From the IMG/VR virus record IMGVR_UViG_3300047160_005727, positions 1 through 64,000 of that record: a DNA stretch of 64,000 nt; one strand, written 5' to 3'. Position 1 is the stretch's first letter. Every line of letters begins with the position of its first letter. The translations under genes and the position numbers were made by a program. Below the pieces are notes generated by a model. The model searched no databases. It was given only the letters and a program-made list of their open reading frames with translations, and was not told where the DNA came from. Shown one piece after another: positions 3,001-19,424 of the stretch. Origin of the DNA: a virus.

Positions 3001-3595
3001 CATGGGGCCGATGGGACAGATCCTGGCCGTGGGCGGGTTGGCTCTCGGCGCCATCGGACTCATGGGTGCCTTCTCGGGCGAAGGCGGTCTAGGCTCGATG
3101 CTGATGGGCTTGATCGGTGGCGGCGGTTTGCTGCTGGGGCTCAACAAGGGGAACATTCTGCCGCAGGGCATGAGCGACGTCATCAACCCGATCTTGCAGT
3201 CGATCGGGCTGGGCGATCTGGCCGGCGGACAAGCATCTGCCGCAGCACCGCAAACAGGACCTGGCGGCGAGCCGCTCGTGACAGCACCTGGCGGCGGGCC
3301 GAACACTCCAGGGCCGGCTTCCGGTGCACTGGGTATCATCAACGATCCAGCAGCACGGGCCAAGCTCATGCAGTCACCGCAGGCAGAACAGGATAAAGCG
3401 CTCGCAGAAGCCTACAAGGCTGATCCTACCCTGCGTGCCCAGCTGGATCAGGCGGCCGGCATGTGGGGAGACACCGAAGGCATGGGCATCCAGCGCAACA
3501 TCGTCAGAAACAAGATGCGGCAGCGGCTGGGGCCACAGACAAGCGAGCAGGAGATACAGGGCTTGATCAACGCCGCTCGACGAGCACCGAGGTAA
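2..3595 (+). CDS. Large Gly/Pro/Ala-rich virion-internal (possible ejection) protein, 5'-truncated by the window edge
   Basis: Frame is open to the left edge. Hydrophobic Gly-rich segments (WALPLGLGVGGVGLYL; ILAVGGLALGAIGLMG), K-x-A motifs (VKLAQ, EKCAA, EKTAF), GFLARCGERKLT motif and an internal ~36-aa duplication. Confidence 0.75.
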   Translation, partial: GPGGGPPLISGGSGQPWYAGIRNAAGKARSMFGGGPAGGAGPGVAPPGPVGGPAATGAPLISGRGSPMSARQLGRTALDFAKKHPVPLAAAASSVPLYMGGKAIADASAAASDRAAQANAAPIPTVPQPPPPKSDMIEQGGAAVKNWMGNNWQWALPLGLGVGGVGLYLKNQADRRREEEEEELLQGMRPKIGMVKLAQEFPVQVGFLARCGERKLTGREVRAAVEKCAALSDGLAEDWIRFFDVAAKYEAETSSGMEKTAFPLFPMTAGFNATANQAAGQAPKPPLPTATPPPQKFEPATGGSHAQMKANAQPLPSYAEYRQPRPPAGTPPVQPAPQKFTPTTGGAQAQMQANAQPIPGNEQYRQPRVPAPAAPGSKAVAAGGAPQPQTQPPPPPPPGQPTPPAAPQAPKPYMTNTQQLMANAASDKVIAARAQWMNELNQASRRGDMAEVKRLTAQGAPKGEAMGAAGANRAVLSGPAALQRRNLVESRDEEAADQARGAFWNSMARNKWMPTREDVEQGMAKQTRLINRGMDPTTAAKGDWTSSATDPTLGSYFGGFSQGLASAPASLISTAGNALWDTGRGLAGQGFDYSNTAGAARDFFAPVARGFGAQTESGAPLGPQVNKTFFQDTTPGWADQLHEYAGQEGGNPILKGMAGFAETPTRWAGPIISAAMLSRMPLSAPGHLGVPASVASGLTNWLGPTTFLGRAATNMGIPLSAGAGGSLIGMHSFGNALGQFGGGAQQAYQQEMAAKAMKDPASYEKAFPQPQSIDDYKTWSANMWESQRNNINAQREAEGYGPMNAAEEALHKQEVMGKYDAKNEQLHNERIAKTVPGFTNPDGSFNPNGRLDPSKDPTFNPDKVADWMNAVPGRAQAINHIGEQASTAFTKDINKMPQEMQARLSQPNAKPTEADLAFMKQNGIDPQALAQNGERAGRANALLQAQELGGSVKDVINNNQTPQKMVETAENNPSVREGAEQRSQQTGEGFMASLSKMWTDMGPMGQILAVGGLALGAIGLMGAFSGEGGLGSMLMGLIGGGGLLLGLNKGNILPQGMSDVINPILQSIGLGDLAGGQASAAAPQTGPGGEPLVTAPGGGPNTPGPASGALGIINDPAARAKLMQSPQAEQDKALAEAYKADPTLRAQLDQAAGMWGDTEGMGIQRNIVRNKMRQRLGPQTSEQEIQGLINAARRAPR

Positions 3596-3598
3596 GTC

Positions 3599-3919
3599 AT
3601 GGATATCTGGGACAAGTTTCTTGGAGCAACGGCGCCCAGTATAGTGGGCGTGACCAGGCCGCTGATCACGGGCACCATCCTGGACGACCCCATCGAGCGA
3701 GCCCGGCTCATGAAGCTGCCGCCTGATGAGCAGACTCTGATGCTCAAGCAGGCTCTCGATGCGGCGCCCGAGTACCGCGAGCAGCTGGCTCAAGCATCGG
3801 CTGCCTGGGGCACCTGGAAGCAGATGTGGGTCGTGAAGAGCGTGCGGCAGGCGCTGGGACAACAGACAACCAAGGAAGAGATGCAGGCCCTGATCGAAGC
3901 CTTCAGACGCCTGCCATAA
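3599..3919 (+). CDS. Hypothetical protein, stand-alone paralog of the C-terminal domain of the upstream protein
   Basis: ILDDPIERARLM...REQLAQASAAWG...QALIEAFRRLP aligns with IINDPAARAKLM...RAQLDQAAGMWG...QGLINAARRAP. Confidence 0.8.
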   Translation: MDIWDKFLGATAPSIVGVTRPLITGTILDDPIERARLMKLPPDEQTLMLKQALDAAPEYREQLAQASAAWGTWKQMWVVKSVRQALGQQTTKEEMQALIEAFRRLP

Positions 3920-3931
3920 GGATAGACTCAC

Positions 3932-4177
3932 ATGGATCCGATCCCGTATGATCCCGTCACCTGCGTGACGGCCGCCGAGTTGCGCAGCAAGGGTGTTGCT
4001 GTCACTTCAGACATTCCGGACCACGCATGGATACCCAAGAAGGCGGTCGAGCCTGTCGAGAAGCGTATTCCCAGCGACGATGGCGAGCCGCTCTACAGCT
4101 TCGACGTCATCTTTCACGCCCCGTTCACATGGCAGGAGGATCCAACCCATGATCAAGTTTGCCGTCATGACCCCTAG
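3932..4177 (+). CDS. Small hypothetical protein
   Basis: 81-aa ORF with AAGGA upstream, packed between neighbours. Confidence 0.65.
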   Translation: MDPIPYDPVTCVTAAELRSKGVAVTSDIPDHAWIPKKAVEPVEKRIPSDDGEPLYSFDVIFHAPFTWQEDPTHDQVCRHDP

Positions 4178-5357
4178 CCTGTGCCAGCCCGGTGGCGCCG
4201 AGCGGGTGATCTTGATCCAGGCCCGCTACGGCGACCCGACCCGGATGCAGTGCACAGGCATCGCACTCTCGGGTTACGGCGGACTTGATGAAGCACTGGG
4301 CCGCGATCTGTGCCGCTACACCACGATCCACGGGGACATGCCGCGGGGACGATGGCAGCGGCCCAAGGCGCCCATGGTGCAGACGACGTACAAGAACCTC
4401 AACGAAGCTGTTCTGTATGTCTGCAAAGAAGCCGACGTGTTGCTCACCTGGGGCGGGCTGTCGATGTCCAAGTTCACCGCCGGGCTCAAGCTGCCAGTAG
4501 TCTGCTGCTCGCACACGGATCGTGAAGTCGACAGCAACGAGATCTCGGGGATCACTCACCTGGTGTCGGTGTCGGAGACAGGCCGGCGCTACTTCGACAT
4601 GGCACTGAAGAAAGCCTACGGCGCCAACTTCCCGCCCGTGGCCGTGATCCCCAACGGCATCGAAGTCGATCGGGTCATGCCCCGGCGTGGCCGCGAGTGG
4701 CAGCGCCGGGAGTGGGGTGTCGGCCCGGATGACAAGGTCTTGCTCTACCTGGGCCGGCAGGCCATGTCCAAGAACCCCTGGGCGGCTGTCGAGGTTCTCT
4801 CGAAGCTCCCCGAGAACTACAAGCTCATGATGATCGGCAACCAGTCGTTTGCGCCCAGCGTGCCGATGCCCCGAGTGGTCGAGCTGGTGAATAAGCTGGG
4901 GCTCCAGGATCGCGTGAAGTTCTCGCCGCCCGTGGCGTTCGTCGGCGACGTGCTGGCTGGGGCTGACTGTCTGCTGCACCTGACTCTGAGCGAAGCCGAC
5001 AGCCTGGCGATCAAGGAAGCGTTCATGGCCAGGCTTCCCGTGGTGTGCACTCCGATCGGGGCGATCCCCGAGCTGGAGAAAGAGTTCGGCCAGGTCACCT
5101 GGAACGTCGCTCTCCGTCCGGCCGACGGCGAAGTCAAGGAGCTTGGCCCAGGTACTTACGGAGCTGTGCCGGCTGACCCGCTGTCGCTGAAGATCGATCC
5201 TGATGAAGCTGTGGCACAGATCGGCCGGGCTTTATCCGATGAGGCCAAGCCGATCTGCGATCGGATCCACATGATAGCCATGGAGCGCTGGACGGGCACT
5301 GCGATGTGCGACCGCTGGGCTTCCTACCTGGAGGAGGTCGTCGCGTCATGGAAGTGA
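4149..5357 (+). CDS. Glycosyltransferase, GT4 (GT-B) family
   Basis: GGAER, VSVSE, VIPNGIE, LYLGR...KNP and EADSLAIKEAFMARLPVV motifs. GGAGGA RBS precedes the ATG at 4149. Confidence 0.88.
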   Translation: MIKFAVMTPSLCQPGGAERVILIQARYGDPTRMQCTGIALSGYGGLDEALGRDLCRYTTIHGDMPRGRWQRPKAPMVQTTYKNLNEAVLYVCKEADVLLTWGGLSMSKFTAGLKLPVVCCSHTDREVDSNEISGITHLVSVSETGRRYFDMALKKAYGANFPPVAVIPNGIEVDRVMPRRGREWQRREWGVGPDDKVLLYLGRQAMSKNPWAAVEVLSKLPENYKLMMIGNQSFAPSVPMPRVVELVNKLGLQDRVKFSPPVAFVGDVLAGADCLLHLTLSEADSLAIKEAFMARLPVVCTPIGAIPELEKEFGQVTWNVALRPADGEVKELGPGTYGAVPADPLSLKIDPDEAVAQIGRALSDEAKPICDRIHMIAMERWTGTAMCDRWASYLEEVVASWK

Positions 5358-7594: not shown

Positions 7595-10500
7595 ATGTCT
7601 CTTACACTCAACCCGGCGAACCTGGCCCGGCGCGAAGCGGCCGAGGCCGGTGACTACTATCAGGTAGGCCAGGCATACGGCTTCCTGGTCAAGTCGGCTG
7701 CCAGACCGGTTGCAGCGCCGGTGTTGCACGGAAGACTGATCGTGACCCCACACAAGTGGGGCATGATCCTGGTGCCGAACTCCTTGATACGCGGCGTATT
7801 CGATGCCATCGACGAGCCCGGCGTCGAGCTACCGCTGCGCGACGGTGTCCTGAAGGGGCACATCTCCGTCTTCAGGCCCGAAGAGATCGACAAGATCGGC
7901 GGCGAGAACAAGATCAGTGAGCGAGGCCATCCGTTCTCGTACCAGCTTGGCCCCTTGATGGAAGTCGATCCCAAGGGCTGGGAGGAGATGTCCAAAGCCT
8001 GGTTCATCAAGGTCATGTCCCCTGAGCTGAAGGCGCTGCGCAGGAGCTACGGCCTCTCCCCGCTCCCTAACAACGATCACGAGTTTCACATTACGGTGGC
8101 TGTCAGGCGCAAGAACGTGCTGGGGGCCGGGGCGACCTCGAAGGCAGCGGCAGCCGACGAAGATGACGATGAAGATGTACATAGTGGCCTTAGCGACGAT
8201 GTACATCAAAGCGAGGAAGAAGAGGACAGCGGCGCGGACAATGACGACGGTAAAGTCAGGGTCAAGATCCCCCTGTCGATCCAGCGCATCTGCATAACCC
8301 GCATCTCTTTAGCGAAGCCAAACGGAAAGGAAAAAGGAGAGGACAGCGCGGACAGCGGACTTGACGACTTCATGGACATGCTCAGGAGCAAGTCCGGCTC
8401 CGTGAAGGAGGCCGCCGGCCTGGCTGATGCTTTTAAGGGAATGGGCAAAGGACTGGGTCAGGCAGTGCTCGGTGCCGGGCGAAGCGCCTTGCAGCGAGTC
8501 GGCTCGTCGCCGGTGGCGGGTAGCCTGGCATCGCTGGGCAAGCAGTTCGCAGCCGCCCCAGCAGCAATGACAAGACAGGCTCTCGGCAATACGGCCCGGT
8601 TCGTGGCCAGCGTACCTGCGGGTCAGAACTTCACCGGGCAGGCCGGCGCCGGGGCGCTCTCCCGTGCCGGTACCACACTCAAGAACCTGGGCCGGATCGC
8701 CGTCGCGCCCCGTTATCCCGGACTTGACCGGCCCGTCGGCGTGACTTCGATGAACCGGCCGTTTGATGCCACTCGGGCCATGCTCGGCAATATTGGCCGC
8801 AAGGGAAGCATCGGTGCCATGGGGCTCTCTGGCGTGGCGATCGGCAACGCCGCTCTCAGGACTTATCCGAACTGGGTCGGCCAGCATATTGCCGACGCAA
8901 CCGGCCAGGGTGAGAACGCCGAGAACATCAAGGCAACGATGCGATCAGAAGCTCCTGGGTTCTACGGCCACATGATCAAGGACACCTTGACCAACTCCCA
9001 GGAGCCTGCCTCGAAGTTCGTGCGCGGGGTCATCGGCGACATCGCTGTGCCGACCATTCGCAACGACATCTATAACGCCCGCCAGACCAAGCCTTGGCTG
9101 ATGGGCGCGATCGATACGCTGCGATCGACAACTCCTGCCGGCTGGCTGGCAACCCAGGGGCTCAAGGCGTTCGGCTCCGAGACGCCGCCGGATATCGCCG
9201 GCGCAGTCCAGCAACATGCTCCCGGACTGCTCGCAGGGACAGCTGAGAACCCTGAAGCGGTGGCGGCCAGCCCGTATGCGGGCCTGATCAAGAGCATGAC
9301 TCCGGCTGTGGCCCCGCAGACGGCCGGACAACCTTCGGCTGCTGAAGGGGTAGCTCACTACATCCGGACGACGAACCCGGAGAACGCGCGCGAGCGCTAC
9401 AACCAGATGCGGCGGCTGCTGCCACAGATGCCGCTGGCCTCGATCGCAGGGAACATCAAGGCCGGATCTGCCCTCGAAGGGCTCACGCCGGTCTTGGCGG
9501 GCGCTGGCCTTGGCGGCCTGGCCGGAAACCTGTATGGCCGGTTCCGCGGATCGGAAGACCTGTGGAGCGACACGCTGGGTGGAGCTGCCGTCGGCGGGGC
9601 CGGTGGTGCCGCCTACAGTCTCGTCAACAAGGCACAAGGCGCACCGACGATACCGAAGCCGGTACCAAGACCTTACACGCCACCACCGGGATCGCAGCCC
9701 AAGAACCTGGTCGAGGCCGTCAAGCCCTATTACGCGAATGTTCCGGGCGGTGTCGAAGGAGCGATCGCGCGAGCGCAGGCGAACCAGGCGCCGGTCGAAA
9801 AGTCGCTGGCCATGGCTCCCTGGAAGGCCGAGGATATCCGGGCCAACATCCCGGTCTCGGAGATCACCAAGGATCAGGCTGCGGTCGATCCCCGTAGGCC
9901 ACCCGAGACCAGCGGTGCCACGCTCAAGGGTTGGTCCGAGTCCAACTTCGATGAGGCCGTGAGAAACCCCAACGCTCCCACGGCCAAGATCAAGATGATC
10001 ACGCCGCCCGACAGCCCCGAGGACAGCAGGCAGCTTCTGGAGCACGAGCTGACCCATGCGGGGATCCAGCTCACGCCGATGGCCCGGACGATACGTGAGA
10101 CAGGCAGGGCGCCCGAGGTCGATGAAAAGGCTCAGCACTCAGGCGCCGAGCTGGTACGACGGCTCGGTGGAACACCCAGCAGCAAAATGCTTGATCCGAA
10201 GTCGTTCGAGAACTACGCGACCTCGGCCCGCGAGCTTGATCCCCGGCTGGCTCAGATCAAGCGGTTCTACGCTGAGCACAGCGGCCAGGATGTGACGACG
10301 CCCGAAGAAGCCAAGAACGCCATGAACTGGTTCCGCGCCTGGATCAAGTCCCCGGAAGGTCAAGCCAGGGCCGGTGCGACAGGCCGGGACTGGGAGTCGC
10401 TCTTCCAGCTGCCCGAATGGCAACAGACTCTCGAGGGTGCGGCAGCCCGGCGCATGCCAGGACTGGTCGACATCAGCCGGCTCGATCCCAACCTGAAGGC

Positions 10501-12325
10501 GGCGGCCGATGCTGGTGTCCAGGATCTCCTCAAGGACTGGAAGCCTCCCGAGAAGAACCCGTTCGCCGGCTTTGAAGGCTTCGCCCAGACCTTCCACGCC
10601 AAGACCCCGCGGGAGCAGGCGATCGAGTCGCTGGGGCGGATCGCCTTGATGGCAGCGCCGCCCCTGGCGATGGCAGGCGGGCTAGCTCTGTGGCGCCCCT
10701 GGGAGCAGTCAGCACCTCCCAAGCCGGTGCGGCGCAGAATGCCGGTCGAGATGGCGAAGGTCGCAGGCGCGGCTGAAGAACACGGCATCGAGTTCGAGGG
10801 GAAGTATCCGTGGTCCTCGCCGGGAAAGCTGCATCGATGGTCGGTCGAACATCAGCTTTTCAACCAGGCATACGATCGGCACCATCAAGGCGGCAAAGTA
10901 CCCAAAAAGGAAGCGCTACGCCGCGCGGTGGAAGAGTACGACCAGACCGCAGACAAGATCAATGCGATAGGGCTGGGCGCATTCACTGGTGGCCTGGGTG
11001 GCTGGGGGCTGAACCGCGCGCTGGGCGGAGAGCACAACCTCGCTGCCCAGCTTGGTGGCGCTGCCCTGGGTGGCCTGGGTGGCTGGGGGCTGCACCACCT
11101 GGCGACGAAGTACGGCGAGACCAAGACCGCCGCCGTCTCGGACGTGATGAACTCGATCTACGCGCAGCTACCCCGGATCAGAGTGCCCGATACGGCCGTT
11201 GGAGCTGGTGTGGGAGCCCTCGGCGGCCTGGGGTACGACCTGATCCGGGGTGGAGATCCCAAGGCTCGCTGGCGGCAGCGCATCGGCCGGATCTTGACCG
11301 GGGCCGGTGCCGGCGCGCTGGCAGGCAATGTGATCGGCGATCGAACCCGCCGCTACATCTCGAACAGCTTCGTGCCCTTCAGCTATGAGAACAACCCGGC
11401 CCAGGCCCTCAAGCCGCGCAGCCTGTCGCACATCTGGAACGCGGCGATCCTGGACAAGCCGCAGTACCAGCAGGCCAACGAAGAAGGACTGAAGCGGCTC
11501 CAGGCGCAGGGCAAGCCGGTGGTTTCCGCCCTGACGAGCAAGGACTATGACTATCGCAAGGACACGCTGGAGAACTACATGCTGCCGGCACGGCGGGAGA
11601 TCTTCCGCCGCCAGCTGGGCGTACACACCGAGAACCCGCTCACCGACATCTGGAAGGAAGGCCCGAACGATCAGCTCTTCTTGAACCCCAAGAACCCCAA
11701 GTCGCTGGCCACGGCCCAGCGGTTCATGGGCTCGATGGCCGGCGGCATTCCCAAGGACATCTTCAGCGACGTGGGCGACGCGCGCCGTTACCTAAACGCC
11801 ATGAGCAGCGATAACGAAGATGCTGCCCTGTTCTCGTCGGCCGTGACCGGCGGGCAGCAGGTGCCGTTCAAGATGCTGCCGGGCGGCAAGGGCATCGAAG
11901 GCTCGGTCCTCGATCGCTGGGACTATACCCTCGATCCCAAGGAGCAAGCGTTCTTCAAAGACAATATCAAGAACATGCTCACGAACCCGAAATGGCGTCA
12001 GGCGAAATTCGCTCCCAAGGAGCCGCTCTCCGGTTACATGGACCCCGCCAAGATCAACGGTCCCAACTCGGATGCGTGGAAGGCGCTGGCCGCGCGCTGG
12101 GGCCTGGACAACCTGGTGTCGTACAAGCATCCCTGGATCACCCAGCGGTTTCGCATCGAGCCCAACCCTGAGCCGGTAAAGCGAAACGCGCAGGGCTTTA
12201 TGCCGTTTGGAACACCGCAACAGATCCAGCTGTTGTCGCCGACCGGCGAGAACTGGGGTGATCCGATCACTCAAGCGGGGCATGCCGAGTTCAAGAAGCA
12301 CCCGTCGGTGATACCAGCACTATGA
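7595..12325 (+). CDS. Polyvalent polyprotein: 2H phosphoesterase, acidic tract, glycine-zipper modules and zincin metallopeptidase
   Basis: Two HxS/T motifs (GHISV at 7859, FHITV at 8087). HExxH (EHELTHAG, ~10040) with a downstream Glu (SARELDPR). GGLGGWGL glycine zippers. Modules are separated by K-x-A motifs. Confidence 0.8.
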   Translation: MSLTLNPANLARREAAEAGDYYQVGQAYGFLVKSAARPVAAPVLHGRLIVTPHKWGMILVPNSLIRGVFDAIDEPGVELPLRDGVLKGHISVFRPEEIDKIGGENKISERGHPFSYQLGPLMEVDPKGWEEMSKAWFIKVMSPELKALRRSYGLSPLPNNDHEFHITVAVRRKNVLGAGATSKAAAADEDDDEDVHSGLSDDVHQSEEEEDSGADNDDGKVRVKIPLSIQRICITRISLAKPNGKEKGEDSADSGLDDFMDMLRSKSGSVKEAAGLADAFKGMGKGLGQAVLGAGRSALQRVGSSPVAGSLASLGKQFAAAPAAMTRQALGNTARFVASVPAGQNFTGQAGAGALSRAGTTLKNLGRIAVAPRYPGLDRPVGVTSMNRPFDATRAMLGNIGRKGSIGAMGLSGVAIGNAALRTYPNWVGQHIADATGQGENAENIKATMRSEAPGFYGHMIKDTLTNSQEPASKFVRGVIGDIAVPTIRNDIYNARQTKPWLMGAIDTLRSTTPAGWLATQGLKAFGSETPPDIAGAVQQHAPGLLAGTAENPEAVAASPYAGLIKSMTPAVAPQTAGQPSAAEGVAHYIRTTNPENARERYNQMRRLLPQMPLASIAGNIKAGSALEGLTPVLAGAGLGGLAGNLYGRFRGSEDLWSDTLGGAAVGGAGGAAYSLVNKAQGAPTIPKPVPRPYTPPPGSQPKNLVEAVKPYYANVPGGVEGAIARAQANQAPVEKSLAMAPWKAEDIRANIPVSEITKDQAAVDPRRPPETSGATLKGWSESNFDEAVRNPNAPTAKIKMITPPDSPEDSRQLLEHELTHAGIQLTPMARTIRETGRAPEVDEKAQHSGAELVRRLGGTPSSKMLDPKSFENYATSARELDPRLAQIKRFYAEHSGQDVTTPEEAKNAMNWFRAWIKSPEGQARAGATGRDWESLFQLPEWQQTLEGAAARRMPGLVDISRLDPNLKAAADAGVQDLLKDWKPPEKNPFAGFEGFAQTFHAKTPREQAIESLGRIALMAAPPLAMAGGLALWRPWEQSAPPKPVRRRMPVEMAKVAGAAEEHGIEFEGKYPWSSPGKLHRWSVEHQLFNQAYDRHHQGGKVPKKEALRRAVEEYDQTADKINAIGLGAFTGGLGGWGLNRALGGEHNLAAQLGGAALGGLGGWGLHHLATKYGETKTAAVSDVMNSIYAQLPRIRVPDTAVGAGVGALGGLGYDLIRGGDPKARWRQRIGRILTGAGAGALAGNVIGDRTRRYISNSFVPFSYENNPAQALKPRSLSHIWNAAILDKPQYQQANEEGLKRLQAQGKPVVSALTSKDYDYRKDTLENYMLPARREIFRRQLGVHTENPLTDIWKEGPNDQLFLNPKNPKSLATAQRFMGSMAGGIPKDIFSDVGDARRYLNAMSSDNEDAALFSSAVTGGQQVPFKMLPGGKGIEGSVLDRWDYTLDPKEQAFFKDNIKNMLTNPKWRQAKFAPKEPLSGYMDPAKINGPNSDAWKALAARWGLDNLVSYKHPWITQRFRIEPNPEPVKRNAQGFMPFGTPQQIQLLSPTGENWGDPITQAGHAEFKKHPSVIPAL

Positions 12326-15300
12326 GCGACCCGTTCAGCCTACCGACCTGGCAGGAGATATTTCAGGAAGCAGCCATCGAGCTGATGCCTGAGCTGGTCA
12401 AGACCGCCAAGAAGAAAAAGAAGCCAAAGCCGCCAGCCCTGCTTGCCGAAGACGAGAAGATCCGGGCCAACAAGAAGAAGCCCGAGAACCAACAGCCGCA
12501 CAAGTTCGAGGCTGCCGAGTGGACCCACGGTAATGGCCATCCCCGCTGTATCCGCTGTGGGGGTGAAGAGCCGGCGGGCGGCATGTGTGGTGACGGCCGG
12601 CCGATCCCGGAGGTCTTGAAGGTCGCAGCCGACTATGCGCCCGGGCTGCCCTCGAAGTCCGATATGGGTCACGCCAATAAGCTCCGCGTCGGCCAGATGC
12701 TCGACTACATAGTCCAGCAGCATGATGCCGAGCGCGCAGGCCGGCACTTCGATGTCCGGTTCGGTAACCCCGAGATGGGCTTGCTCTCCTGGGCCGCGCG
12801 CAAGGGGCTGCCCGAGCCCGGAGCCAAGCACCTTGCAGTCCAGCAACCCGTGCACAGACACGGCTACAAGGACTTCGAGGGTACGATCCCCGAGGGCTAT
12901 GGCGCCGGGACGGTCAAGAAGCACGACGAAGGTCAGGTGCTGATAACCAAGGTAACGCCCGAGTCTATTCACTTCACGACGGCTCACCCGAGGCACCCCG
13001 AGCGGTTCGTGCTGGCGAGGCCCAAGGGCTGGGGCAACAAGAACTGGCTGATGATGAACACGACCCCCAGAGACGAAGTCCCTTACGAGAAGATCCGCTA
13101 CAAGAAGATCGCCCCCGAAGACGTCGAACCTCATCTCCAGAAGATGCAGGCCGGTGATACCGCCGAGGCCAAAGTCGATGGCGCCAGCCAGCTCGTGCAG
13201 CTGGCCAAGAACCACGCCGAGATGTTGAGCTTCCGGACCTCGAAGACCACGGGCCGGCCGATCTTCCACACCGAGCGCTTCTTCGGCGGCAGGCCCGAGA
13301 TCCCGGTGCCCAAGCACCTGGAGGGGTCGATCCTGAAAGGGGAGATGTACGCCGCCAAGGACAAGGGTGTTGGTACGCCCCAGGATGTTGGTATGTTACT
13401 GAACTCAGGCATCGCCCGGAGCCTTCAGCTCCAGAAGGAGAAGGGACTTGCCTTACGCAACATGCTCTATGATGTTCAACAATACGGTAAGAGGCCGATC
13501 GATCCGACCGTTACGCCGCGTATTGAACGGCGCAAGATGCTTGAGGAGATCGCCGGTCATCTGCCAAAGGACAAGTTTCATGTCTCAGAAGAAGCCCACG
13601 GCCCCGAAGAAGCAACCAAGCTCTGGAACAAGATCAGGTCGGGTAAACATCCCCTTACACAAGAGGGCGCTGTCCTCCACCCAGCAGTTGGTATCCCAAG
13701 CAAAGCAAAGTTGGTCGAGGACTATGACGTTCATTTGCGGGGTACTTTCCCGGGTGAAGGCAAGCGTCAGCAAACTGTGGGCGGGTTTGTGTACTCGCAC
13801 AAGCCGACTGGGCCGATCGCTGGCAAGGTCGGTACGGGCTTTAGCGATGAGTTCTTGAAGGACGTAGCCGGGGATCCAGAGGCTTACATTGGCCGTGTGG
13901 CACGGTTACGATCGCAACAGAAGTTACCGTCAGGTGCGCTTCGAGCCCCTAGCTTTATAGCTTTACATGAAGACTACCCAGATAAGCCCAGGGGATCATT
14001 TCGGAAGACTGGAAGTTCTAGCGCGCGCACCGGACAGGGAAGGGAACCGAAACAGTTGGTGGACTTGCCGCTGTGCCTGCGGAACGGTGAAGGACATCAG
14101 AAGCTGTCGACTGACCGGCGGGCACCCAACGCGCTCATGTGGTTGCTTGAAAAGCGAGCAGAAGCGAGCACAGCTCCAGACCCACGGCATGTCCGACACA
14201 CCGGTATACGCGGTCTGGCGCAACATGATCCAGCGATGTACCGACAAGGGGAGCAAGGACTATCCCCGATGGGGAGGCCGGGGCATAACGGTATGTCCCC
14301 AGTGGCGGGACTTCACAGTCTTCTTCAGGGACATGGGGCTGCCGCCGCCGGGCATGACCATCGAACGGAAAGAGAACAATGGCCCCTACTCCCCGGAGAA
14401 TTGCCACTGGGCAACCAAGTCGGCGCAGGCACGGAACAGGCGGAACAACCGGCGCCTGACCGTGAACGGTCTGACGCTGCCAGTGTCAGCGTGGGCAGAA
14501 CGGAACGGCGTACCCTTCCGCACGATCCTGAAAAGGCTGTTTCGGGGATATTCGGACTCGGAGGCGGTGGCAACGAAGTCGTTCAGGGGACGCAACGGGG
14601 CGTCTCCACCAAGGTTGGTGCAGCCAAACTAGCCAGCTTCTTCGGCTATGGTCAGCCGGCTCCGGGCGGTGCCTTGACCGTGCCGGACTACGAGCTTCCC
14701 GGCGAGCGTATCAAGCGAAAGCGGCCGGCGGCTGTGATAGCTGCCCCGCCGCCGACGTGGATGGAGACGCTACGCAACTCGCTCTGGGGCAACCCCAACG
14801 CCCTGGTGCCCGACGTCATCAAGCAGATCGAAGAGGAGGAAGAGGGCGGGGGCATGATCCCCAAGGTCGGTGCGGCCAAGTGTCCGCCCGGCGAATGCTG
14901 CCCGAAGTGCGGAGCCCGGCTTGAATGCGATCCTGACAGCGGCAAGTGCAACCGGTGTGGCCATCTCTGGGGCGAGAAAGCCGCTGCCTACACGACGGAG
15001 AACACGAGTACCCTCCCCGATGGCCGCACACTCAATATCGACGCGCTGAATGACCGGGCCAAGAACCGGTCTGTCGAACGGATCCCCCTGGCCGATCTGG
15101 CGAAGCCCAACCGTTCTTCCAGTACCGGCTTCTCGAAGAAGCGATATGCCAAGCTCGATATGAACAAGCCAATTCTCGTCGGCACCGACGGTACGCTCTA
15201 TGACGGCCGCCACCGGCTAGCCCGGCATCTCGATGAAAGCAAGTCGCATATCCGTGCGCGCCGTGTCACCGACAAGGATATCGATGCCGTGACGGTAACT

Positions 15301-17946
15301 CATGCGCCGAAAGGTGACCGGATCGATGAAAGCCGGATCGAGATGCTCCCGGAGAAAGCTGCTGCGATCATTGATGACCTCAAACGAGCCAAGGCCCAAA
15401 GCGATCGAGGCAATTATTCCGAGAAGCATCGTATCCTCGCGAAGCTGCTCAGCGAACGCCCTAATGAGTTCATCCAGGACTCATCCGGGCGGGGCATGAT
15501 CGGGCTGACACACACAACAGGCTTCCGTTTACATGCACCAGCTACGCTGGTGCGCAGTAAGCTCATCAAGGCGGCCGACTTGCTCCCGTGGGTAAACCTC
15601 CAGGAACAGCAGAAGCGGGTCGCTAAGCGTGTAGGCGAAGGTCAGAATTTGTTGGTCTATCACGGGCTCGGAAGCGGTAAGAGCCTCGCGAGCCTGGCGG
15701 CTGCTGAAGGTGTCGGCGGACCATATACCGCGATCGTTCCAGCATCGCTCAAACCAAACTACCTTAAAGAAATACATAAATTTACTACTGAGACATCACC
15801 ATCAGAAGTAATGTCTTATACTGGGGTTGGGTTAGGCAAACAGCCCAAGATCACGCCCAATACGATCATCATGGACGAATGCCTTCCTACTGGGACACCG
15901 GTTGATGGAAGACCGATCGAAACCTACGGTATCGGCGATCTTGTCTGGAGCATCGATCATGTGACGAGTCGGATCGAACGGCGATCAGTGATACGCACAG
16001 CAGTACGGTATACCGATGAGATCGCAGTTATTGAATTCGCAAGCGGACGTCAGCTGGTTTGTACACCCAACCATTCGATCTACACGCAGCGAGGCTACAT
16101 AGCCACCGAAGACTTGATCGAAGGTGATAACGGTTATACACTCTACGGAAACGCTGTCCCCTTCGATCAAGGAGAAGACGATGCCGCAGTGGATCGAGGC
16201 CGTATGCGGGATGTGCGGAAAGACATTCTTGGCATTCAAGTCGCCGTCCAAGATGGTGAAGCATTGCTCCAAAACATGCCGGGAAAAAGTTCGAGTTATC
16301 GCCATGAAGGCCATGAGCGACGCGACCCGCGATCAGCGTATACAGCGAATGACCAGCAACAACCCCATGGCGGATGCGGCGTGTCGTCAGCGTGTATCGA
16401 CGACAATGCGAGAGCGGGGATACAAGCCTCGCGTGCGTGGCGGCAATGGCGCCGGACCAACGGAGCAGGAAGTGGCCGTGGCCACGGCACTCAGCTGGCC
16501 GACGAATGTCGTGGTCGTAACTGGGCTGAGTTATCGTCCTTGGCATTACAAGGTCGATGTCGGGAACCCGGATCTGAAGATAGCCATCGAGATCGATGGT
16601 CGGTGCCACAATTCGTCAAAGCGGCGAGAGGCAGACAGAAGGAAGGATACCTTCTTGCGATCGATCGGGTGGTCAGTGTTGCGGTTTACAAACAAGGATG
16701 TGGACCAGAATTTGACTGGCTGTGTCCAGATGGTCTTGTCCACGATCTCACTGTCGACGGCAACCACAATTTCTTCGCCGATGGCTACCTAGTTCATAAC
16801 TCCCAGCGCATCCGTAACCCGGGCTCGGCCGGCACGCGCGCGGCGATGGATCTGGCCATGAAGGCCAAGCACCGGATCTTGCTCTCGGGTACGCCGATCG
16901 TGAACCAGCCCAGCGACCTGGCCGTGCCGCTGTCGATCCTGACCGGCAACGAGATGAGCCCGGCTGCCTTCAACCAGAAGTTCGTCGGCAGCAAGACGGT
17001 CAGTCCCGGCTGGATGGGATGGTTCCAGGGCGTCAAGCCGGTCAAGACCCCGACACTCCAGAACGAAGACGATCTCGAGCGACTGCTCGAAGGGCATGTC
17101 GACTACCAGGCGTCGCGTGCGCCTGAAGGTGTCAAAACTAAAGACGAACGAGTCGAGGTGGATCTTAGTCCCGAACAGCAGAATTTCTACAAACTCATGT
17201 GGGGTAAGCTACCGTGGATGCTTCGCTGGAAGCTGTCCAATGACTATCCACTGGACAAGAATGAGCTGGCTCACCTGTCAGCGTTCATGACCGGTCCGCG
17301 GCAGGCTGCCCTGTCGCTGTATCCCTATCACTCGTCCAAAGATCCGATGCATGCGTTTGGCACGTCGTCCAAGCTCCAAGCGGCCATGGGCAGTCTGAAG
17401 GAGACCCTGGCGAAAGATCCGCGAGCCAAGGCCATCGTCTACTCGAACTTCATCGATGCCGGCCTGACGCCCTACGCTGCCGCCCTCGAACATGAAGGCA
17501 TCCCGTATGGGCAGTTCCACGGTCAGATGAACGACGAAGACCGCAAGCGAACCCTGGACGAATATAACGCCGGTAAGCGTCGCGTGCTCCTGATCGGTCC
17601 CGCTGGCGCCGAGGGGATCTCGGCCAAGGGTACACAGCTCATTCAGCTTCTTGATCCGCACTGGAACGAAGCCCGACTGGGTCAAGCGCGCGGCCGCGGG
17701 CTGCGGTTCGATAGTCATGAGGGTTTGCCCGAAGAGCTACGCGATGTGAGAATACAGCGGTTCGTGGCCAAGATGCCGCCGCCCGGCTGGCTGGGCAGCA
17801 TGTTCGGCCAGAAGCCCCGGCCATCGGCGGATGAGGTGCTCGAACGGCAGTCGCAGCGCAAGGAAGAACTCAACGAGCAGTTCCGGGATGTCCTGCGCCG
17901 GGTGGGCTCGCCTGACTACCGCCGGCCGTGGCATCTCTTCGGCTGA
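12322..17946 (+). CDS. Polyvalent polyprotein: LigD-type 3'-phosphoesterase, ATP-dependent DNA ligase, Zn ribbon, ParB-like domain and intein-containing SF2 (SNF2/D6-D11-like) helicase
   Basis: PE domain: QQHDAERAGRHFDVRF...LLSWA.RKG...HLAVQ...H.Y.DFEGTIPEGYGAGTV. Ligase motifs: AKVDG, KGEMY, LYDV, QEGAV, KAK, GKVGTGFSD, LRAPSF. ParB-like: PILV...LYDGRHR. Helicase: YHGLGSGKS, IVPASL, DE|SQ, LSGTP, HWN..R.GQARGRGLR.DSH. Confidence 0.9.
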   Translation: MSDPFSLPTWQEIFQEAAIELMPELVKTAKKKKKPKPPALLAEDEKIRANKKKPENQQPHKFEAAEWTHGNGHPRCIRCGGEEPAGGMCGDGRPIPEVLKVAADYAPGLPSKSDMGHANKLRVGQMLDYIVQQHDAERAGRHFDVRFGNPEMGLLSWAARKGLPEPGAKHLAVQQPVHRHGYKDFEGTIPEGYGAGTVKKHDEGQVLITKVTPESIHFTTAHPRHPERFVLARPKGWGNKNWLMMNTTPRDEVPYEKIRYKKIAPEDVEPHLQKMQAGDTAEAKVDGASQLVQLAKNHAEMLSFRTSKTTGRPIFHTERFFGGRPEIPVPKHLEGSILKGEMYAAKDKGVGTPQDVGMLLNSGIARSLQLQKEKGLALRNMLYDVQQYGKRPIDPTVTPRIERRKMLEEIAGHLPKDKFHVSEEAHGPEEATKLWNKIRSGKHPLTQEGAVLHPAVGIPSKAKLVEDYDVHLRGTFPGEGKRQQTVGGFVYSHKPTGPIAGKVGTGFSDEFLKDVAGDPEAYIGRVARLRSQQKLPSGALRAPSFIALHEDYPDKPRGSFRKTGSSSARTGQGREPKQLVDLPLCLRNGEGHQKLSTDRRAPNALMWLLEKRAEASTAPDPRHVRHTGIRGLAQHDPAMYRQGEQGLSPMGRPGHNGMSPVAGLHSLLQGHGAAAAGHDHRTEREQWPLLPGELPLGNQVGAGTEQAEQPAPDRERSDAASVSVGRTERRTLPHDPEKAVSGIFGLGGGGNEVVQGTQRGVSTKVGAAKLASFFGYGQPAPGGALTVPDYELPGERIKRKRPAAVIAAPPPTWMETLRNSLWGNPNALVPDVIKQIEEEEEGGGMIPKVGAAKCPPGECCPKCGARLECDPDSGKCNRCGHLWGEKAAAYTTENTSTLPDGRTLNIDALNDRAKNRSVERIPLADLAKPNRSSSTGFSKKRYAKLDMNKPILVGTDGTLYDGRHRLARHLDESKSHIRARRVTDKDIDAVTVTHAPKGDRIDESRIEMLPEKAAAIIDDLKRAKAQSDRGNYSEKHRILAKLLSERPNEFIQDSSGRGMIGLTHTTGFRLHAPATLVRSKLIKAADLLPWVNLQEQQKRVAKRVGEGQNLLVYHGLGSGKSLASLAAAEGVGGPYTAIVPASLKPNYLKEIHKFTTETSPSEVMSYTGVGLGKQPKITPNTIIMDECLPTGTPVDGRPIETYGIGDLVWSIDHVTSRIERRSVIRTAVRYTDEIAVIEFASGRQLVCTPNHSIYTQRGYIATEDLIEGDNGYTLYGNAVPFDQGEDDAAVDRGRMRDVRKDILGIQVAVQDGEALLQNMPGKSSSYRHEGHERRDPRSAYTANDQQQPHGGCGVSSACIDDNARAGIQASRAWRQWRRTNGAGSGRGHGTQLADECRGRNWAELSSLALQGRCREPGSEDSHRDRWSVPQFVKAARGRQKEGYLLAIDRVVSVAVYKQGCGPEFDWLCPDGLVHDLTVDGNHNFFADGYLVHNSQRIRNPGSAGTRAAMDLAMKAKHRILLSGTPIVNQPSDLAVPLSILTGNEMSPAAFNQKFVGSKTVSPGWMGWFQGVKPVKTPTLQNEDDLERLLEGHVDYQASRAPEGVKTKDERVEVDLSPEQQNFYKLMWGKLPWMLRWKLSNDYPLDKNELAHLSAFMTGPRQAALSLYPYHSSKDPMHAFGTSSKLQAAMGSLKETLAKDPRAKAIVYSNFIDAGLTPYAAALEHEGIPYGQFHGQMNDEDRKRTLDEYNAGKRRVLLIGPAGAEGISAKGTQLIQLLDPHWNEARLGQARGRGLRFDSHEGLPEELRDVRIQRFVAKMPPPGWLGSMFGQKPRPSADEVLERQSQRKEELNEQFRDVLRRVGSPDYRRPWHLFG
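13967..14632 (+). CDS. HNH homing endonuclease overprinted in the +1 frame inside the 12322-17946 ORF
   Basis: FGRLEV...W.CRCACG...RSCGC...W.NM.QRC...YPRWGGRGITVC..W..F..F..DMG......TIER..NNG.YSPENC.WAT...Q.RN, a typical phage HNH family pattern. Confidence 0.88.
   Translation: MKTTQISPGDHFGRLEVLARAPDREGNRNSWWTCRCACGTVKDIRSCRLTGGHPTRSCGCLKSEQKRAQLQTHGMSDTPVYAVWRNMIQRCTDKGSKDYPRWGGRGITVCPQWRDFTVFFRDMGLPPPGMTIERKENNGPYSPENCHWATKSAQARNRRNNRRLTVNGLTLPVSAWAERNGVPFRTILKRLFRGYSDSEAVATKSFRGRNGASPPRLVQPN
15880..16800 (+). mobile_element. Intein (307 aa) inserted in the Walker B motif of the helicase
   Basis: IMDE|CLPTGTPV start, block B CTPNHSIYT, block F/G VHDLTVDGNHNFFADGYLVHN|SQ with a +1 Ser. 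Confidence 0.93.
16181..16792 (+). CDS. DUF559/Vsr-like endonuclease with an N-terminal Zn finger, nested in the +1 frame inside the intein
   Basis: AAGGAG RBS at 16169-16174 and ATG at 16181. CGMCGK...HCSKTC; PTEQE; YKVDVG...KIAIEIDGRCH...DRRKDTFLRSIGWSVLRF. Confidence 0.88.
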   Translation: MPQWIEAVCGMCGKTFLAFKSPSKMVKHCSKTCREKVRVIAMKAMSDATRDQRIQRMTSNNPMADAACRQRVSTTMRERGYKPRVRGGNGAGPTEQEVAVATALSWPTNVVVVTGLSYRPWHYKVDVGNPDLKIAIEIDGRCHNSSKRREADRRKDTFLRSIGWSVLRFTNKDVDQNLTGCVQMVLSTISLSTATTISSPMAT

Positions 17947-17957
17947 TCGGAGGACAC

Positions 17958-19424
17958 ATGGATCCGCTGTTCACACCTGTCACCAACAAGCCGTTCACGA
18001 GCGTGCTGGCCGAGGACGTGACCTACGATCCCAACCAGAGCGCGCTCATGAACGTGGGGCACAACCTGGCGCGGGCCGGTGACAAGGTCATCATGCGCAA
18101 CCGCTGGCAGGATCGTGCCATCCAGATGGAACAGGCGATGGAGAAGCTCCGCCAGGAGCAGGCGATCGCCCGGCGGCGCGCAGCCATGCTGAAGATCGGC
18201 CGGCTCCAGGAGCAGCTGGGTGCGATCGTCGACGAGCATGACTACGATGCCTGGCGGAAGGTGCCGGAGATGGTCGTTGCCCTCTTCAAGAAGGCAGCCC
18301 CGATCGCGTGCCGGCTGGCTGCCTGGGCCGACCGGGCGGCAGGCCCGGAAGATCGGCTGTGGTGGCACGGTGACTCCAACACAGCCTGGGCCGAGATCGC
18401 CGACACGGAGAAGCGGGCTGACTGGGAGGCCCTGCCTGATGTTCCCGGTGTTCCTGGTCTGGCTCTGTTCATCGAGCCCTTCCCTCCACCACCAGTCGAA
18501 GGCTGGCTCATGGTCAAGGCTGCCGACGGCTACCTCGAACCACTCGCCAAACCGCACCATCAGATCCAGCAGATGATGGCGGCTCCGTTCGGCGCCAAGC
18601 CAAACGGCCTGACCTCGGCGATCCTCAACGGCGTGCTCGGCGGCGGCCTGGGTTACGGTGCCGGTTGGCTGGCCGACCAGTTCTTGCCGGAAGAGCACTT
18701 CCAGAAAGGCCGGCTGGCCAAGACCCTGGGGCTCGCCGGTGCCGGTCTAGGTGCCATTCCGGGCCTGTGGCGCTACTCGGCCGAGGTTCGAGGCCAGAAC
18801 TACCCGCCTTACAACGGCGGGCCTGGCCCGCTGCCGAGGATACCCCACAAAGACATCCCCAACCCGTGGGGTTATCCGGGTTCGCTGCACCCGGATACCG
18901 ATCTCAGCCCGCAGCTGCCGCCTCCGCCGCCCAAGAACCCGCTCCAGCCGTTCGGGACGACCTCGCCGTTCGATGCCAACGGAACCAAGCTGGCCTCGGT
19001 GCACCCGTGGCTCCACAAGGCGGCTGAAGACTACGGCACGGGCGCCATGTTCCTCCAGACCATCCCGGTGGATGCATTCAACCAGGCTATCTGGAACGAC
19101 GTGGAACACCCGCCCAACCGGTTTGGCACCAAGAGCCCCTGGGGCAACAACGAGCAGCCCATGGGTACGCCGCCTTACGCGGCAGCAGCCATCTCGGGCT
19201 TGCTGGCGGGCACGGCGCAAGCGGTCGGCTCAGGAGCCGTCAGTCCGCTTCAGGTCGCAGCAGCGGCGGCTATGGGGGCTGGAAAGGGCTGGGTTACCGG
19301 CATGGCAGCCGGTAAGATCCTGGGTGCTATGGCCGGGTTGAAACCCGAGTCGCAGCAGAAGCTCCAGAGCCTGGGGCTCTGGGGCGGGCTGATCACCGGC
19401 GTGGCCAACTCGCTCTATCGCTGA
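17958..19424 (+). CDS. Virion-associated protein with glycine-zipper membrane segments
   Basis: GGAGGA RBS; GVLGGGLGYGAGW and GLWGGLITG segments; several K-x-A motifs. Confidence 0.75.
   Translation: MDPLFTPVTNKPFTSVLAEDVTYDPNQSALMNVGHNLARAGDKVIMRNRWQDRAIQMEQAMEKLRQEQAIARRRAAMLKIGRLQEQLGAIVDEHDYDAWRKVPEMVVALFKKAAPIACRLAAWADRAAGPEDRLWWHGDSNTAWAEIADTEKRADWEALPDVPGVPGLALFIEPFPPPPVEGWLMVKAADGYLEPLAKPHHQIQQMMAAPFGAKPNGLTSAILNGVLGGGLGYGAGWLADQFLPEEHFQKGRLAKTLGLAGAGLGAIPGLWRYSAEVRGQNYPPYNGGPGPLPRIPHKDIPNPWGYPGSLHPDTDLSPQLPPPPPKNPLQPFGTTSPFDANGTKLASVHPWLHKAAEDYGTGAMFLQTIPVDAFNQAIWNDVEHPPNRFGTKSPWGNNEQPMGTPPYAAAAISGLLAGTAQAVGSGAVSPLQVAAAAAMGAGKGWVTGMAAGKILGAMAGLKPESQQKLQSLGLWGGLITGVANSLYR

Follow-up and report, generated by a model that had tools for sequence, protein, structure and literature searches.

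The insertion site and the intein

The window analysed here is the whole 64,000-nucleotide stretch formed by positions 1 to 64,000 of IMG/VR virus record IMGVR_UViG_3300047160_005727. One of its giant ORFs contains an intein with no recognisable endonuclease in its own frame, while a nuclease gene runs through the same nucleotides in the +1 frame. This raises the question of whether the overlap is an error, a relic or a functional element. The evidence below makes it highly probable that the locus is a composite mobile element, consisting of a class-1 intein in motif II of a SNF2 helicase and a Vsr-like/EDxHD (DUF559) homing-endonuclease gene in the +1 frame. The host ORF carries LigD phosphoesterase/ligase, ParB-like and SNF2 helicase modules. 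It is a jumbo-phage gene. The host-frame features are:

12322..17946, + strand: host gene, giant ORF of 1874 aa, open throughout
15865..15879, + strand: N-extein flank of the insertion, helicase motif II / Walker B with IIMDE
15880..16800, + strand: intein of 307 host-frame codons, from Cys1 to His-Asn
15880..16152, + strand: N-terminal splicing half with block A CLPTGT and block B CTPNH, matching solved mini-inteins
16153..16650, + strand: host-frame filler of about 166 codons, with no stop and no homolog; the +1 frame is the nuclease
16651..16800, + strand: C-terminal splicing half with the RVxSV strand and blocks F and G
16801..16803, + strand: +1 extein nucleophile Ser, with Ala or Val at the same place in relatives

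The intein starts with TGC at 15880 (Cys1 of CLPTGT), and its last codon is AAC at 16798-16800 (…YLVHN); Ser at 16801 is the next residue. The insertion splits SNF2 motif II as IIMDE/.../SQRIRN. The ORF and positions proposed in the initial annotation (15880-16800, 16169, 16181 and 16790) hold to the base. Two hallmarks of class 1 (HINT) inteins were found in the sequence itself, namely an N-terminal nucleophile with a block B TxxH (Cys1, CTPNH) and blocks F/G ending in His-Asn before Cys, Ser or Thr (…VHDLTVDGNHNFFADGYLVHN/S). Among 48 family inteins C1 and N307 are invariant, H306 is nearly so, and T62 and H65 reach a conservation of at least 90%.

The middle of the intein had been described as lacking a recognisable endonuclease, and only its two ends indeed match known mini-inteins. 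Pfam Intein_splicing is restricted to the N- and C-terminal parts, and a profile of 48 host-frame inteins aligned with solved mini-inteins at positions 1-91 and 284-306 (for example the Spl DnaX mini-intein 7cfv, E 4.7e-20), with no match between these two segments. The single-sequence AF2 model of the 307-aa host-frame precursor had a pLDDT of 32, too low to be informative. Judging from the conserved residues and from the purge of host-frame stops described below, the intein of the window is probably active in protein splicing.

All 16 relatives of the helicase module (51-87% amino acid identity) are devoid of the intein. In each of them DE is directly followed by A/V-Q/H/A-R, so the insertion site is uninterrupted and the presence of the intein is polymorphic. 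In the window, the catalytic residues of the nuclease and the splicing residues of the intein are intact. Since 16/16 relatives lack it, the arrival of the intein is recent relative to their divergence. The window site is DE/xQR with a +1 Ser, compared with DE/CHH as the usual family site and Cys as the +1 extein residue in most relatives. The possibility that the upstream extein was co-converted along with the intein was considered and rejected: identity of the window to L088 stays at 66-90% upstream of the site, and the low identity to L087 there reflects the divergence of L087 itself. A blastn search of phage genomes with the helicase and intein region gave no match.

The nuclease gene in the +1 frame

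The features of the overprinted gene are:

16169..16174, + strand: Shine-Dalgarno sequence AAGGAG, 6 nt upstream of the nuclease ATG
16181..16792, + strand: nuclease gene, +1 frame, 203 codons plus TAG (stop at 16790-16792)
16205..16279, + strand: zinc ribbon, C9, C12 … C29, C33
16463..16762, + strand: Vsr-like / EDxHD catalytic domain, D126, E137, D139, H143, D152

The initial annotation of this product as Vsr-like/DUF559, with its own AAGGAG and ATG, was borne out by a Pfam DUF559 match (E 1.8e-11). Profile comparison recovered 3hrl (E 4.3e-13) and 3r3p (E 0.0064), the nuclease catalytic residues aligning with the catalytic stretch of both. The AF2 model (pLDDT 90.7) showed a Vsr-like fold, with I-Bth0305I 3r3p (probability 1.00, TM-target 0.66), Vsr 1vsr and 3hrl as top Foldseek matches. 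The product carries the Asp/Glu/His set of EDxHD / Vsr-like homing endonucleases, a motif defined in PMC3239194. In an alignment of 52 nucleases D126, D139, H143 and D152 are invariant and E137 occurs in at least 90%. The four zinc-ribbon Cys are invariant or nearly so, and the profile bears a weak likeness to eL24/MYM zinc fingers.

I-Bth0305I is the prototype of EDxHD homing endonucleases (Taylor et al. 2011, PMC3239194; PDB 3r3p), and as the best structural match it shares the Vsr-like fold and the catalytic positions with the window nuclease. However, its gene lies in a group I intron and its N-terminal DNA-binding motifs are of the NUMOD type, whereas the window nuclease lies inside an intein and carries a CxxC…CSxxC zinc ribbon and long helices.

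The nuclease could be a relic, carried by a splicing intein but unexpressed or inactive in the window phage, so that the element is fixed and immobile. The closest nuclease in the collections is 47% identical, the window sequence sits on a long terminal branch of the tree (1.28) and no donor of the element was seen in the collections. A promoter/terminator scan near the nuclease start gave no promoter-like site, and folding around the start (z-score +0.73) gave no hairpin sequestering the ribosome binding site. Such a history is nevertheless unlikely, as the ORF is unbroken and has a strong AAGGAG and an ATG, the model is confident, and all invariant family residues are kept (4 Cys, NPM, GGNG, the catalytic set and GW..RF.N); the recent arrival relative to 16 intein-less relatives also argues against it. 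Nuclease activity in the window phage could already have been lost.

Distribution of the family

A search of IMG/VR with the single nuclease protein gave no confirmed relative; relatives there were found by a search with the nuclease alignment. The nuclease is nested in 71 of 80 IMG/VR loci, always at +1, and none of the loci had nesting at +2 or a nuclease in frame with the helicase. Homologs were present in 41 phage records, nearly all under annotated helicase CDSs, a few having a CDS with another product name over the nuclease. In the five isolate phage records inspected, the nuclease lies at +1 of a stop-free CDS and is annotated as a separate CDS in none. In total, 77 loci carry it at +1 of an open host ORF, including complete Vibrio, Corynebacterium and Pseudomonas phage genomes. 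The overprinted family has more than 100 members, and +1 nesting is its normal state. In three pairs of related loci the inteins have diverged less than their exteins, by a factor of about 5-20.

Longer in-frame nuclease fusions numbered two only. One (P0002) is a genuine in-frame DUF559 intein endonuclease in a UvrD-type helicase, and the other is a single record in which the nuclease frame runs into the C-extein. A free-standing nuclease relative (L065) was also found. Five relatives (L040, L041, L048, L054 and L055) are split "fractured-gene" forms, in which stops interrupt the host frame and the N-half and C-half are separate ORFs with the phases kept; they group as one clade in the nuclease tree (support 100/99).

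The position of the start codons bears on how the nuclease is made. Just 5' of the zinc ribbon, 69 of the 71 nested IMG/VR loci have a start codon, 41 of these with a Shine-Dalgarno-like sequence by a simple pattern; in several relatives GAGG lies inside the DEVL codons of the intein. Programmed +1 ribosomal frameshifting could instead yield the nuclease as a fusion to the N-extein and N-intein, with no internal initiation, which would fit the uniform +1 phase and the crossing of the site by host-frame ribosomes. We regard this as very improbable given the start signals across the family and the independent initiation of the free-standing and split relatives. Independent translation of the overprinted gene is the reading that we retain.

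Dual coding and selection on both frames

The nuclease covers the middle of the intein and extends through the first two thirds of the C-terminal splicing half, where about 45 codons (~140 nt) are overlapped by the nuclease C-terminus. As had been noticed initially, motifs of both proteins share one stretch, 16652-16792, where the +1 frame gives FLRSIGWSVLRFTN… and the host frame LLAIDRVVSV…VHDLTVDGNHNFFADGYLVHN; both motifs occur in their respective family consensus.

The host frame across the window nuclease has 0 stops, against 7.1 expected from codon shuffles (n=5000, none with zero host-frame stops), and the third frame has 9. The off-frame stop rate in the genes of the window phage is 2.6% per codon. 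The same holds for 45 non-redundant loci (GC 29-67%), which have 0 host-frame stops against a mean of about 12.5 expected for each, with 838 stops against 772 expected in the third frame. Nuclease codons ending in T before AA, AG or GA amounted to 0/3075, compared with 25% elsewhere. A change of NNT to NNC always leaves the amino acid unaltered. Because the T of a host-frame stop falls on the wobble position of the nuclease, such stops can be removed at no cost to it. Their purge from 45 loci shows that read-through itself is selected.

Substitution phase was measured in 12 pairs. Host codon position 3 took 49-60% of the substitutions in the exteins and 52% in the intein N-half, whereas in the nuclease-only zone 54% fell on host position 1, which is nuclease position 3. 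Purifying selection therefore acts there on the nuclease frame and not on the filler. The dual-coded zone was the slowest of all, with 0.10 substitutions per site. The overlap is neither chance nor a sequencing error, and these patterns indicate that the overprinted layout is kept by selection.

Two further explanations can be weighed against these results. Two compensating indels in the assembly could have put an in-frame endonuclease out of frame, since the record is metagenome-derived and rare in-frame relatives such as P0002 exist. An identical +1 phase in 77 loci, including complete isolate genomes, speaks against this, as do the stop-free host frame and the conserved motifs of both frames in the same 140 nt, which a single frameshift pair cannot yield. 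The comparative data refute such an artefact in practice, leaving it a negligible probability. Alternatively, the intein could be functionally split, its halves being made separately and trans-spliced like those of fractured genes, in which case the openness of the host frame would be incidental. The five split relatives match this arrangement (Dassa et al. 2009, PMC2677866). However, the window has no host-frame stop, the purge in 45 loci points to selected read-through, and the split forms are confined to one clade, so that trans-splicing at this locus is very doubtful.

The comparative data instead support a contiguous splicing domain with a separately initiated, overprinted nuclease gene and a filler that would be spliced out, as had been proposed. 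The +1 ORF is intact in close and distant homologs alike, contrary to the refuting case named at the outset, a broken ORF in close homologs. As for the suggestion that a nuclease colonised a mini-intein, the colonisation did not take place in the window phage. Intein and nuclease reached it together, already overlapping, as a unit that is old and widespread.

Other embedded genes

One further gene is embedded in the same giant ORF:

13967-14632, + strand: HNH gene in the +1 frame, without an intein

The relative L087 has two such intein-less +1 HNH genes. RNA splicing of both embedded genes of the window was rejected, the search of 12000-18200 having given no group I intron; the only RNA-family match in that region was a weak sRNA match (E 0.85) dismissed as chance. 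Seven further ORFs nested on the same strand, each 150 aa or longer, were tested in the window and had no PHROG match, so hidden genes are not general in the ORFs of this phage. The HNH gene corresponds to the ShiLan-type hidden HNH insertion (Arsenault et al. 2025, PMC11855218), an out-of-frame endonuclease in a stop-free host ORF. That type has no splicing element, whereas the window nuclease has an intact intein around it.

Comparison with known systems

The initial annotation regarded this architecture as not well described, which does not hold. Out-of-frame intein endonucleases have already been published by Gosselin, Arsenault and Gogarten (bioRxiv 10.1101/2025.01.02.630785), and a cyanobacterial dnaX intein with a separate overlapping endonuclease ORF by Phillips et al. 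(bioRxiv 10.64898/2026.09.14.751524); both preprints cite Gorbalenya 1998 for an out-of-frame intein endonuclease. The published types are antisense LAGLIDADG, antisense VSR-like, sense frame-3 endonuclease VII-like and +2 LAGLIDADG in dnaX, with polymerase, minor capsid, terminase, thymidylate synthase and dnaX genes as hosts, and they are termed rare. Like the window intein, they are contiguous, with an open host frame, a middle unrecognisable in that frame, an endonuclease in another reading under selection, and a gene missed by annotation pipelines. Unlike them, the window has a sense-strand +1 nuclease with a zinc ribbon and a Vsr-like domain, located in helicase motif II. Its overlap with about 45 codons of the C-terminal half also differs from the published cases, and a gene nested in this way is the norm in a family of more than 100 members.

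Fractured genes have an intein in two separate halves, between which a Vsr-like endonuclease gene stands on its own (Dassa et al. 2009, PMC2677866). They share with the window the nuclease type, the strand and the order of N-intein, nuclease and C-intein. In both, the 3' end of the nuclease overlaps the start of the C-intein, and the hosts are mainly phages and DNA-metabolism genes. In contrast to fractured genes, the window has no host-frame stop or restart in 15880-16800, making its intein contiguous, and the overlap is ~140 nt compared with 6-69 bp (PMC2677866).

Proposed mechanism and significance

In the element proposed here, host-frame ribosomes would read through the ~166 meaningless, stop-free filler codons, after which the intein ends would fold as one and remove the filler by splicing, which would restore DE-S-QRIRN. 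Other ribosomes would initiate at the AAGGAG/ATG (16169/16181) and produce the 203-aa nuclease. This would cut intein-less helicase alleles, which would then acquire the complete element through repair (homing). Separate translation of the nuclease, cis-splicing of the intein and homing of the window element are all probable. Cleavage of the element-free allele is suggested indirectly by the intein-less relatives and by the less diverged inteins in the three pairs of loci.

What can be gained from the window alone is modest; the family gives it weight. Out-of-frame intein endonucleases, called rare in the preprints of 2025-26, are the rule in one large helicase-intein family. One nuclease lineage occurs side by side in contiguous, split and free-standing forms, so that the connection of inteins with fractured genes and split inteins that has been proposed (Dassa et al. 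2009) can be tested directly. The data also provide a clear-cut natural case of long dual coding, in which selection can be measured in both frames. Inteins tolerating a filler of ~170 residues, and nucleases targeting helicase motif II, could serve as tools.

These results point to a homing-endonuclease gene family that is invisible to standard annotation, as in all five phage records inspected. Because about 45 codons serve both proteins, neither the nuclease nor the intein part could be lost or shifted alone. The overlapped +1 layout might then be a locked, successful design and not a rare accident or a transient step towards an in-frame intein, a reading to which we give slightly less than an even chance. 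Taken together with the intein-less +1 HNH genes here and in L087, it would suggest a general route of 'stop-free hitch-hiking', by which endonuclease genes would invade phage ORFs of great length whose contiguity must be preserved.

Anatomy of the intein and the nested nuclease gene

An intein with a separate nuclease gene overprinted in its +1 frame was identified with near certainty in a jumbo-size phage (IMG/VR virus record of 141 kb, of which the window is the first 64 kb), where it interrupts the SNF2 module of a giant ORF with several domains. The frame of this ORF is referred to as the host frame, and the middle of the intein in that frame (16153-16650) as the filler.

Features of the giant ORF
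12322-17946, + strand: giant ORF, 1874 aa, with LigD-type phosphoesterase/ligase, ParB-like and SNF2/Helicase_C modules
13967-14632, + strand: complete HNH endonuclease gene, +1 of the giant ORF (phrog_374, E 8.3e-65)
15880-16800, + strand: intein in SNF2 motif II (IIMDE / CLPTGT … YLVHN / SQRIRN)
16169-16174, + strand: Shine-Dalgarno AAGGAG, 6 nt before the ATG at 16181
16181-16792, + strand: nuclease ORF in the +1 frame, 203 aa, ATG 16181 to TAG 16790-16792 (DUF559, E 1.8e-11)

The coordinates proposed in the initial annotation for the intein, AAGGAG, ATG and TAG were all correct. The Pfam intein splicing domain matches the two ends of the insert only. Positions 1-91 and 284-306 of a host-frame profile of 48 homologs aligned to solved mini-inteins, and the approximately 190 positions between them matched nothing. 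The top match was the Spl DnaX mini-intein 7cfv (E 4.7e-20); a bacterial intein-like domain, PI-MtuI/RecA, NrdJ-1 and gp41-1 came next. The splicing residues are intact, and C1, T62, H65, H306 and N307 are invariant or nearly so in the profile.

The nuclease TAG sits within the codons of the final intein residues. Common to 52 members of the nuclease family are the motifs CxxC…CSxxC (zinc ribbon), RMxxNNPM, RGGNG, YKxD (D126), ExDGxxH (E137, D139, H143), D152 and LxxxGWxVxRFxN. A confident AlphaFold model built from their alignment (pLDDT 90.7) has an alpha/beta domain accompanied by a zinc ribbon and two long helices. Among PDB structures it best matched the catalytic domain of I-Bth0305I (3r3p, probability 1.00), Vsr of E. 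coli (1vsr, 1cw0) and 3hrl, a DUF559 protein, and the sequence profile matched 3hrl (E 4.3e-13) and 3r3p (E 0.0064), in agreement with the DUF559/Vsr-like assignment made earlier. I-Bth0305I serves as the prototype for the EDxHD homing endonucleases (PMC3239194). This Vsr-like family was initially recognised in "fractured genes", where its members lie between the halves of split inteins (PMC2677866).

Conservation of the +1 arrangement

In 16 long genes of the same phage, off-frame stops amount to 2.6% per codon and open off-frame stretches of 203 codons are essentially absent. Shuffling of the nuclease codons (n=5000) gave a mean of 7.1 host-frame stops and never zero (0/5000); the third frame across the nuclease carries 9 stops.

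By tblastn, 41 phage genome records contain nuclease homologs (35-41% identity), almost always under a helicase-annotated CDS and in a few cases under a hypothetical or "coil containing" protein. Five records were inspected (Corynebacterium phage phi673, Vibrio phages 104E43.1, CP-T1 and 1.194.O, and Pseudomonas phage MR14). The helicase CDS lacks internal stops and the nuclease lies at +1 in 5/5, and none of these GenBank/RefSeq records has an annotated nuclease CDS or intein. The stretch is annotated there as one CDS, named helicase, 'hypothetical' or 'coil containing'.

Scanning IMG/VR with an alignment yielded 111 nuclease relatives, of which 80 loci were retained. One other frame is open across the entire nuclease in 74 of the 80, always placing it at +1 of an open stretch of 489-1322 aa; at none of these 74 does it lie at +2 or in the helicase's own frame. 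Three of them are cut by contig ends, and 71 were counted as fully nested. Across 45 non-redundant loci (GC 29% to 67%) there are 0 host-frame stops versus 12.5 per locus in shuffles, and 838 third-frame stops versus 772 expected. Compensating frameshift errors in the reads, an alternative raised by the initial annotation, are excluded by the +1 nesting in phage records and IMG/VR loci together with the stop-free host frames. Close and distant homologs alike retain an intact +1 ORF.

Of the 71 nested loci, 69 have a start codon, mostly ATG, immediately before the zinc ribbon, and in 41 of these 69 a crude pattern detected a Shine-Dalgarno-like sequence. The GAGG of the nuclease start falls within the conserved DEVL codons of the intein in several relatives. 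No promoter or regulatory hairpin for the nuclease was detected.

Selection by reading frame

For 12 pairs of related loci, largely independent of one another, substitutions were tallied by their position in the host codon.

Share of substitutions at host codon positions 1, 2 and 3, and substitutions per site
5' extein: 29%, 22%, 49%; 0.31
Intein N-half (N-terminal splicing half): 27%, 21%, 52%; 0.18
Nuclease-only zone: 54%, 26%, 20%; 0.19
Last 150 nt of intein (dual-coded): 33%, 22%, 46%; 0.10
3' extein: 25%, 15%, 60%; 0.23

Host codon position 1 is the wobble position of the nuclease. Since substitutions in the nuclease-only zone peak there, the filler is free of amino-acid selection in the host frame and the nuclease is under such selection. 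The dual-coded intein end is the slowest-evolving zone, constrained by both proteins. The host frame is selected to stay open. Of the nuclease codons before AA, AG or GA, 0/3075 end in T, versus 25% of codons elsewhere, the T share among pyrimidine-ending codons being 61%. This purge of stops acts via the nuclease wobble base, and because NNT to NNC is always synonymous, in the +1 phase it costs the nuclease nothing. The original observation is confirmed, and its interpretation is supported.

Related forms of the element

In five loci (L040, L041, L048, L054 and L055) the three coding regions and their phases are those of the contiguous form, but the host frame contains stops. In each (~2300-4500) the N-extein/N-intein ORF stops, the nuclease gene follows, and a C-intein/C-extein ORF begins inside the nuclease 3' end. 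These loci are fractured genes, in which the intein is split, and they group as one clade in the unrooted nuclease tree (support 100/99). At a further locus, L065 (2944-5084), a nuclease homolog stands as a free gene immediately upstream of one for a helicase. The reading frame of that helicase is interrupted precisely at motif II (…IIIDE, with …GHHAAAP continuing in a different frame), either through an assembly indel, perhaps, or as a scar at the site that the family usually targets.

Two longer in-frame fusions of the nuclease were found. P0002, a rare version in the intein of a UvrD-type helicase, encodes the DUF559 nuclease in frame and lacks the zinc ribbon; its C-terminal splicing strand follows the nuclease domain with no overlap. 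In P0001, a single record, the nuclease frame continues into …FLVHN|CHQ… and the C-extein.

A second hidden gene in the giant ORF

Particular to the window are the SNF2 module of the giant ORF as intein host, Ser as +1 extein residue at an insertion site of type DE|xQR, and a second hidden endonuclease gene in the same ORF. This HNH gene occupies the linker between the ligase and ParB-like modules, where the host frame has 0 stops versus 4.6 expected (p = 0.0044), and no intein or intron was detectable around 13967-14632. It resembles the "ShiLan" type of hidden HNH (PMC11855218); its host-frame filler presumably stays in the mature protein, within the inter-module linker. Among intein-less relatives of the helicase module, L088 lacks the HNH insert (…HED|INKVAS…), and L087, the closest relative, has a 78%-identical copy in the same place. 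A second HNH-like gene further on in L087 (3230-3664, + strand; 43% identical to that of the window) likewise lies at +1 of an open host frame.

The giant ORF abuts another (7595-12325, 1576 aa) via an ATGA stop/start overlap. In L088, the matching open frame extends for at least 2380 aa, reaching the end of the fetched stretch.

Proposed mechanism and mobility

Out-of-frame intein endonucleases are, as a general idea, already published and of a recently described kind. For the dnaX intein, alternate ORFs coding for endonuclease homologs are attributed by citation to Gorbalenya (1998). In actinophage inteins of polymerase, minor capsid, terminase and thymidylate synthase, Gosselin, Arsenault and Gogarten described LAGLIDADG and VSR-like genes in antisense as well as endonuclease VII-like genes in sense frame 3, and call such cases rare (bioRxiv 10.1101/2025.01.02.630785). 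Frame-specific selection was reported by Phillips et al. for a +2 LAGLIDADG in dnaX (bioRxiv 10.64898/2026.09.14.751524). For helicase inteins, the literature searched contained no account of a Vsr-like gene on the sense strand at +1.

In the proposed mechanism, ribosomes would read through the filler and the intein would be spliced in cis from the helicase precursor, while the nuclease would arise by internal initiation on the same mRNA and would cut intein-less alleles, leading to homing. As a whole, this mechanism is regarded as highly probable. SNF2-module relatives in IMG/VR (51-87% aa identity) are uninterrupted at …DE|A/V-Q/H/A-R in 16/16, with Ala or Val after the insertion site where the window has Ser. 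Divergence of the intein falls ~5-20-fold below that of the adjoining exteins in three pairs of related loci; L049 and L050, for example, have 3 differences in 888 intein sites versus 54 in 792 extein sites. The intein-less relatives and the low intein divergence lend indirect support to mobility of the element. Most family members are inserted at hhhhDE|CHH or DE|CHYIKN and a few in other Walker-B contexts (DEAH|C, DEGHK|C, DEAQ|C), which suggests that the element may occasionally switch between nucleotide-binding motifs.
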